This document shows, one piece after another, positions 6,792 through 7,277 of a stretch of 20,446 nt of DNA. The stretch comes from a virus. Taxonomy: Duplodnaviria > Heunggongvirae > Uroviricota > Caudoviricetes. The position numbers and the translations under genes are program-made. The notes beneath the pieces were generated by a model that saw only the letters and a program-made list of their open reading frames with translations, ran no database searches and had not been told where the DNA came from. How positions within the stretch are numbered: position 1 is the first letter of the stretch; each line of letters opens with the position of its first letter. The stretch lies in IMG/VR virus record IMGVR_UViG_2529293217_000011. One strand, 5' to 3'.

Positions 6792-7277
6792 TCATCGTGA
6801 AACATCCTCCACGCTTATAAGTCCGCTTCGCTCCAGGTAGTCCATCACTTTATCCGGCAATTTGCAGCCCGGTTTCGCTTTCTTCAGTTGACTAACCAAT
6901 TGTTTAACCAGCATTGTCAATTCGCGAACTTGTTTCCCGGGCTCCCCTTTGCCCTGAAGCAGGGCAGCGCGGCAAGCGTTCCATCCCTCAGCATATGTTT
7001 CAGTTACACCATCGAGATGGCATGTAAGCAAATCCATTTCTTCCGGCACTACGGGCGCTGGAAAAACGGCATAGGGTGGCGTCCATTTTGGCGCTTTATC
7101 TCCAGCCGAACGCTGCTACCAGTCATCCGGTTTGTATTCATAAAAATCACCAACTGGCTCTGCTTCCAGCGATGCCAGCGCAATCCGTGCCAGTTCCATT
7201 TGTTCACCACGGGTAAGCCCGTTTTCAACCGGATTTTTAATGAACAATTCAATACGTTCTTTGGTAATAGTGGTCAT
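6792..7277 (-). pseudogene. Hypothetical phage gene, 161-codon frame interrupted by an in-frame amber codon
   Basis: Continuous - strand frame from ATG 7277-7275 (MTTITKERIELFIKNPVENGL...) to the stop at 6792-6794, with a single in-frame TAG at 7116-7118 (codon 54, after ...KPDDW). I translated codon by codon; the ORF track shows only the downstream part (6792..7049). Confidence 0.55.

Follow-up and report, generated by a model that had tools for sequence, protein, structure and literature searches.

The split reading frame described here is very probably an amber-inactivated allele of a small, dispensable accessory gene of the phrog_660 family, carried by the Sp10/CP-933R prophage. It is a case of ordinary prophage decay, with a pseudogene masked as two hypothetical proteins. 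The window, by which we mean the whole 20,446-nucleotide stretch of DNA analysed, represents a lambdoid prophage of the Rac family, integrated at ttcA. The genes run ttcA-intR-xisR-ralR/RalA-recT-recE-...-kilR-sieB-repressor/cro-ydaT-replication genes-ydaV-DUF1627-DUF977, and DUF977 is followed by small ORFs, a cytosine methyltransferase, nin-like genes and a Q-like antiterminator. The features of the split gene, its recombination joint and its surroundings are collected in Table 1.

Table 1. Features of the split gene and of neighbouring elements, in window coordinates
Feature	Position	Strand	Remarks
Whole split frame	6792..7277	-	161 sense positions plus terminal TGA; translation
Start ATG	7277-7275	-	Opens the split frame
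Amber TAG, codon 54	7118-7116	-	Sole in-frame stop before the TGA
Terminal TGA, codon 162	6794-6792	-	End of the split frame
53-aa N-terminal ORF	7116..7277	-	ECs1951 / Z2391 / WP_000208018.1; PGAP and Sakai annotation
Stranded C-terminal part	6792..7115	-	Codons 55-161 plus stop
81-aa ORF inside the stranded part	from ATG 7037	-	WP_000365100.1 (PGAP); formerly ECs1952 / Z2390
N-module of the window	codons 1 to ~42	-	Sequence MTTITKERIELFIKNPVENG...
Crossover interval	7156..7178	-	23 bp common to both parental gene types; part of the IALASLEAEPV motif
Shine-Dalgarno sequence TAAGGAG	7284..7290	-	6 nt upstream of ATG 7277; duplex with 16S 3' end -8.7 kcal/mol
27-codon ORF	6712-6795	-	MTWPEAFTTVGIAMAVALVVYSICRWG; unannotated by PGAP everywhere
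DUF4014 gene	7553-7770	-	1-nt deletion near 7749/7750; PGAP 'frameshifted'
Three-gene block	2861-6360		Directly downstream of the split gene
Cytosine-C5 DNA methyltransferase	5209-6360	-	
Putative O-methyltransferase	4249-5241	+	Methyltransf_35 family
GHKL/HATPase_c_3 ATP-binding protein	2861-4252	+	
tRNA-Arg (TCT)	529-605	-	Downstream of the Q-like antiterminator region
CAT-anticodon tRNA	706-781	-	ileZ/Ile2 in Sakai; same region
RalA antitoxin sRNA	18143-18321	-	Full-length Rfam match; adjoins ralR

When the coordinates were re-derived, they agreed with the first-pass annotation of the sequence, in which the frame had been reported as open from its ATG to its TGA save for the one TAG. The next in-frame starts after the stop are GTG 7049 (codon 77) and then ATG 7037 (codon 81), and a count of codons 55-76 gives the same 22 open codons between TAG 7116-7118 and GTG 7049 that had been noted earlier. 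By itself this pattern is weak evidence, without statistical significance. Pairs of neighbouring open segments in one frame, at least 53 and at least 107 codons long, number seven in the real window and, on average, 0.2 per window in mononucleotide shuffles of it, 21% of the shuffles holding at least one such pair. The case for a nonsense allele is therefore made by homology, the bare open-frame pattern being insufficient.

In current databases the gene is represented, through PGAP, by two 'hypothetical proteins' of 53 aa (WP_000208018.1) and 81 aa (WP_000365100.1) with no pseudogene flag, and the exact 53-aa protein is present on at least 1,000 contigs. The EDL933 annotation calls Z2390 from GTG 7049 and labels it 'unknown protein encoded within prophage CP-933R', while in the current Sakai RefSeq annotation the downstream CDS (ECs1952) has been dropped. 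We found no functional study of ECs1951 or ECs1952 in the literature; their only mentions are in a CGH table, as 'hypothetical proteins' of Sp10 specific to lineage I, and, for ECs1951, as a node in a transcript network.

Alignment to homologues, which the first-pass annotation had proposed as the way to learn which codon was ancestral, gives TAT (Tyr). The DNA of both E. coli E686 and phage vB_EcoS-666R9 matches the window from 7184 past the stop with three base differences within the gene, and both have TAT at the TAG site, inside one annotated 167-aa gene; position 7116 on the plus strand is C in the window and A in the intact alleles. This 167-aa gene, whose DNA is 98.9% identical to window 6716-7184, is also intact in the induced temperate phages vB_EcoS-673R7 and vB_EcoS-613R10. 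Among 5,426 complete E. coli genomes searched for exact matches to an 81-mer (7077-7157), 173 had the TAG version, 102 the TAT version and none a third variant, so that the intact alleles are one substitution away with the 81-mer otherwise the same.

The 22 codons past the stop encode QRSAGDKAPKWTPPYAVFPAPV, as they do in the intact 167-aa homologue. In a collection of 5.8 billion protein clusters, W-Y-QRS is present in all close full-length homologues, and diverged ones retain the motif with its Tyr. These 22 codons are old coding sequence, not a spacer between genes. Since TAT is found in near-identical DNA, the match to phrog_660 runs from end to end and the Tyr is conserved, the stop is a single-base TAT (Tyr) to TAG transversion in a once-continuous coding sequence. 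The proposal at first reading, of a nonsense mutation in a sequence that is continuous elsewhere, is thus borne out by the TAT of the intact 167-aa gene in E686 and the phages.

Residues 1-160 of the read-through product align to profile positions 3-192 of 193 in phrog_660 (E = 1.6e-44), and the intact E686 homologue matches the same family with E = 2.7e-50. By these matches the split gene is a chimeric, disrupted member of this family of 'EaA-like' early-region accessory genes of unknown function. The frame of the family is interrupted in the window by the TAG at codon 54, which parts the IALASLEAEPV module from the ELTMLVKQL...LISVEDVLR module, and it is because the stop lies between these two modules that the disrupted member can be classed as a phrog_660 pseudogene. 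A Pfam scan of the read-through product gave no family at E <= 0.01, the DUF551 (PF04448) domain being absent, and an Rfam scan of the whole window gave no match in or near 6700-7300, with RalA and two tRNAs elsewhere as its only matches. An AF2 model (35-sequence alignment, mean pLDDT 53, pTM 0.25), used for helix and linker layout alone, places N-terminal helices at 6-14 and 23-38, a low-confidence Pro-rich linker at 40-99 and three C-terminal helices beyond. Codon 54 is predicted to fall in the disordered linker, the 53-aa fragment then comprising two helices and the start of the linker.

Three kinds of relative help to place the locus. The closest, the E686-type gene (WP_000137958.1 in E686 and URC10131.1 in vB_EcoS-666R9; 167 aa, phrog_660), shares the C-terminal modules of the window. 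It occupies the same genomic place, downstream of ydaV (DnaC-like), DUF1627 and DUF977, and its DNA is 98.9% identical from window 7184 through the stop and the next 27-codon ORF. It differs in having TAT and another N-module (MTELTKKQLIEEAKLK...), and it directly follows DUF977, whereas the window has four small genes between. AREA_R504-type loci share with the window the upstream DUF4014 and 87-aa-protein genes, a 55-aa protein (WP_000207997.1) whose first 42 residues correspond to the window N-module with one substitution, and a 114-aa protein (WP_021519728.1) with the C-terminal helical module in common. They differ in that the two genes are real ones, overlapping at ATGA, with an N-module and a start belonging to the second, and in that both the internal stop and the middle Pro-rich/GWNACRAALLQ segment are lacking.

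The third kind, P22 EaA and the DUF551 'Eaa' proteins of lambdoid and P22-like phages, shares with the window only the exchangeable N-module. Window DNA at 7147-7292 is ~91% identical to the P22 eaA/eaI region, and many matches in protein searches are named 'Eaa protein' or 'DUF551 domain-containing'. P22 EaA is 317 aa long, however, and the window protein is without its DUF551 domain. Annotation of P22-like phages lists the function of Eaa as unknown (PMC4837284).

The N-terminal part has a history of its own. Upstream of about 7156-7184 the window is ~94-95% identical to AREA_R504-type loci and unlike the 167-aa gene. In the former, the N-terminal 42 residues, MTTITKERIELFIKNP[V/L]ENGLTRGEQMELARIALASLEAEPV, belong to the independent 55-aa gene. 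The 161-codon gene is accordingly a chimera, in which codons 1 to ~42 come from another gene. In three-way alignments the informative sites bounding the joint are 7179 (G/T) and 7155 (A/G), and megablast matches end at window 7184 and at 7153-7156; the 55-aa-gene lineage lies upstream of the joint and the 167-aa-gene lineage downstream. The N-terminal helical module was joined to the 167-aa-type C-terminal part by recombination inside the 23-bp common stretch. Systems of the RecET type do recombine at such short homology, and RecET may explain the joint, a link that we infer from the intact recE and recT which the prophage carries (PMC2669165).

The description of an otherwise continuous 161-codon gene, given in the first-pass annotation, holds for the 167-aa relatives, in which the frame is indeed continuous, but not for the chimera, which has never been seen intact and whose first ~42 codons are foreign. 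The same annotation had named two independent genes in homologues as the finding that would speak against it, and homologues go half of the way: 518 genomes have the two-gene junction, a 55-aa gene and then a separate 114-aa gene with an ATGA overlap. On these counts the two-gene arrangement is the commonest state at the locus.

Exchange of this sort appears to be general in the family. One and the same C-terminal part occurs with at least four N-modules (those of proteins P0002, P0005 and P0007 and that of the window), the window N-module in turn precedes several further C-terminal parts, among them those of DUF551/EaA-type proteins in P22-like phages, and phrog_3323 is a family of the N-module only. 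In its modular make-up phrog_660 behaves like a kit of exchangeable parts. The C-terminal module, for its part, differs from that of AREA_R504 synonymously in 15 codons and non-synonymously in 10, with 19 of the 32 base differences at third positions, and this synonymous excess and third-position bias show that it is real coding sequence at the level of the family.

The chimera and the stop raise the question of which came first. In strain MB07011 the TAG C-terminal part lies behind a 167-aa-type N-module, is 100% identical to the window from joint to end, and is labelled 'internal stop' by PGAP. Because the same TAG-bearing part thus occurs behind another N-module, the stop probably predates the chimera. 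It is parsimony, together with the lack of an intact chimera in the databases, that supports this order. We suggest, then, that the stop would have arisen first in a 167-aa-type gene, and that a later exchange at the conserved motif would have imported a block comprising a 70-aa gene, DUF4014, the 87-aa gene and the N-module. The 161-codon chimera was probably never a working gene.

An opposite order seems to us less likely: an intact 161-codon chimera would have existed, a recent nonsense mutation would then have struck it, and the MB07011 arrangement would be the product of later back-recombination. The frame is continuous across the joint, as this would require, and the window-type N-terminus is by far the commoner context of the stop, being present in 167 of the 173 TAG genomes. 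Set against these points, the window-type N-terminus was found with a sense codon in none of the 5,426 genomes, where a TAT version of 7100-7195 gave best matches of 95/96 throughout. A window-type chimera was likewise absent from 50,697 phage records, none of which covers at least 80% of the query, and a true intact chimera was absent from about 15 billion proteins. Intact 167-aa-type genes, on the other hand, are common, and the MB07011 allele would require an additional recombination.

Two database proteins were considered as intact or pseudo-revertant alleles and rejected. These are P0001 (159 aa) and P0121 (161 aa), the latter on about 90 short contigs, both 99% identical and with Gln at codon 54. 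The contig DNA reads TAG, not a Gln codon, and that of the source locus (L005, 971-1447) does not translate to the listed protein. Both proteins are artefacts of a gene caller using a code in which TAG is Gln.

A further alternative is that the locus holds two genuine genes, one for an N-module protein of 53 aa and one, translated on its own, for a protein of 81-85 aa, both of them functional, in which case it would represent gene fission and no pseudogene. PGAP and the original Sakai and EDL933 annotations do call two ORFs, the 518 genomes with overlapping 55-aa and 114-aa genes have them at the homologous place, the N-module-only family phrog_3323 exists and the downstream part is undecayed. 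The true two-gene loci, however, give their second gene its own N-module and start, and the window has neither. Its candidate starts, GTG 7049 and ATG 7037, fall in the middle of a part of the 167-aa gene whose coding sequence is conserved, and the 79 nt separating the TAG from ATG 7037 are ancestral coding sequence that matches the intact gene at every base. Neither start seems to have a usable Shine-Dalgarno sequence, the computed pairing being +0.6 kcal/mol at GTG 7049 and -3.5 kcal/mol at ATG 7037, against -8.7 kcal/mol at ATG 7277. For the last, the best 9-mer of the duplex program is TTAAGGAGT at 7283-7291, 5 nt upstream. With the downstream CDS also removed from the current Sakai RefSeq, two genuine genes here seem to us very improbable.

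For the inactivated allele that we prefer, ribosomes would start at the strong Shine-Dalgarno sequence and ATG 7277 and halt at codon 54, giving a 53-aa fragment. Given the poor ribosome-binding sites for a restart and the fact that no suppressor was found, the remaining 107 codons would be essentially untranslated, their C-terminal modules appearing at trace level via near-cognate read-through. The expected product, as we infer it, is a two-helix fragment near in size to the natural product of the 55-aa gene. The fragment could itself be functional, for a nearly identical 55-aa gene commonly stands alone, and 'inactivated' may hold for the C-terminal modules alone.

Carried further, this becomes a picture of tolerated or even favoured fission, for which we would allow only a slim chance. 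After the fusion, the stop would have restored a free 53-aa N-module protein of near-native size, the downstream 27-codon membrane ORF would still be expressed, and rare insertion of Gln or Tyr at UAG-C might add traces of the full-length protein. If that were true, the undecayed downstream part and the spread over several serotypes would reflect selection and not youth.

Least plausible among the biological explanations, and highly improbable in our view, is that the stop is used on purpose, either with read-through or suppression yielding 53-aa and 161-aa isoforms or with TAG as a sense codon. UAG followed by C is a comparatively leaky context in E. coli, and the base after this TAG is indeed C; a gene caller also gave Gln for it on the P0121 contigs. 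Those 'Gln' proteins nevertheless stem from TAG DNA. Recoding would be expected to leave a conserved in-frame TAG or many such genes; in the relatives the site is instead an ordinary Tyr codon, and with table 11, in which TAG is a stop, the other genes of the prophage read normally and are intact. The first-pass annotation had envisaged read-through in a supE/supF-type host. No tRNA with a CUA anticodon was detected in the window, whose tRNAs are Arg-TCT and Ile2/Met-CAT, and in the carrier Sakai glnV and glnX, examined for suppressor alleles, are wild type (anticodon CTG). Alleles of glnV of the supE type were found in 155 of 5,424 genomes, all of them K-12 laboratory strains among the 60 matches listed. 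An error of sequencing or assembly can be dismissed with near certainty, since the exact 81-mer recurs in 173 complete genomes that were produced independently, in many laboratories and on many platforms.

The allele is widely distributed. E. coli E2863 matches a 701-bp probe (6700-7400) with 100% identity, 98 of 102 sampled 200-mers of the window are found exactly in prophage Sp10 of O157:H7 Sakai, and Sp10 there holds the same 486-bp split gene base for base. Carriers of the TAG include O157:H7 (Sakai, and EDL933 in CP-933R), O111:H8/NM/H2, O103:H2 and others. The earlier impression of a recent mutation has therefore to be withdrawn, at least in its simple form, the identical allele being present in 173 genomes of several serotypes, Sakai and EDL933 among them. 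Compared with E686, on the other hand, the C-terminal part has only two substitutions, both amino-acid-changing (P to A at codon 134 and L to S at codon 160), and no indels, and for this reason the lesion looks young on a substitution clock, yet is not strain-specific. The undecayed C-terminal part was counted against inactivation: it may mean that, by a molecular clock, function was lost not long ago, or else that there is still some expression.

In O103:H2 strain PV16-126 (locus L006) the set of proteins is identical from the nin-like genes to the repressor region, and the recombination module beyond differs. Because this strain keeps the central block and differs beyond it, the amber allele travels on a mosaic prophage block, on which it is fixed and which O157:H7, O111, O103:H2 and other strains have in common. 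In place of kilR, recE and recT, PV16-126 has dicB, DUF1482 and a PD-(D/E)XK nuclease. Sp10 has been described as specific to O157:H7 lineage I (PMC1890555), and it can still undergo excision, packaging and transfer to K-12 (PMC2669165). This mobility explains the spread of the allele and indicates that the gene is dispensable for excision, packaging and transfer.

In combining a point lesion, a non-essential gene and a partly mobile prophage, the split gene is like the classical pseudogenes of defective lambdoid prophages. The 'defective prophage pool' of Sakai stays partly mobile (PMC2669165), and Rac of K-12 contains 5 pseudogenes (PMC4632033). Unlike them, its lesion is unflagged in the Sakai, EDL933 and PGAP Sp10-type annotations, where it is hidden as two 'hypothetical proteins'. 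ECs1951/ECs1952 (Z2391/Z2390; WP_000208018.1/WP_000365100.1) should be flagged as a pseudogene, being halves of one disrupted phrog_660 gene, and PGAP already flags the same allele as disrupted in another context (MB07011). A caution for databases is that the phantom 'intact' 161-aa protein, on about 90 contigs, arises solely from TAG-as-Gln gene calling. Scientifically, another accessory gene inactivated by a point change, in a prophage that is decaying yet still mobile, carries little weight, but the locus does offer a clean, small example of module shuffling among lambdoid early-region genes, at a conserved motif of ~23 bp in a prophage with intact RecET.

The amber stop is accompanied by a second lesion, which is confirmed here: 430 bp upstream of the split gene, the DUF4014 gene has lost one nucleotide (AGAAAAGAAT to AGAAAA-AAT) relative to its intact AREA_R504 counterpart. 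Its presence so close by shows that the prophage block is decaying, and the frameshift is probably another of the 'three premature stops' that the first-pass annotation had counted in this prophage.

Several other elements of the window deserve mention. The 27-codon ORF that follows the split gene is hydrophobic and has a single stretch resembling a membrane helix. It begins at an ATG that shares bases with the TGA ending the split gene (ATGA), and a strong Shine-Dalgarno sequence, GGAGGA (-9.3 kcal/mol), precedes this ATG. The ORF is kept in every related locus examined, including that of a free phage, and shows one change, F7L, in the about 90%-identical AREA_R504 locus. Its sole family match is a weak one to phrog_4612 (E = 0.019). 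Neither of the two tRNAs is a suppressor. RalA, the antitoxin of the RalR/RalA type I toxin-antitoxin pair, scores 225 bits against a gathering score of 170. Finally, the O157, O103:H2 and MB07011 prophages all retain the three-gene block that lies on the other side of the split gene from DUF4014; in gene content the block resembles a defence or modification module.
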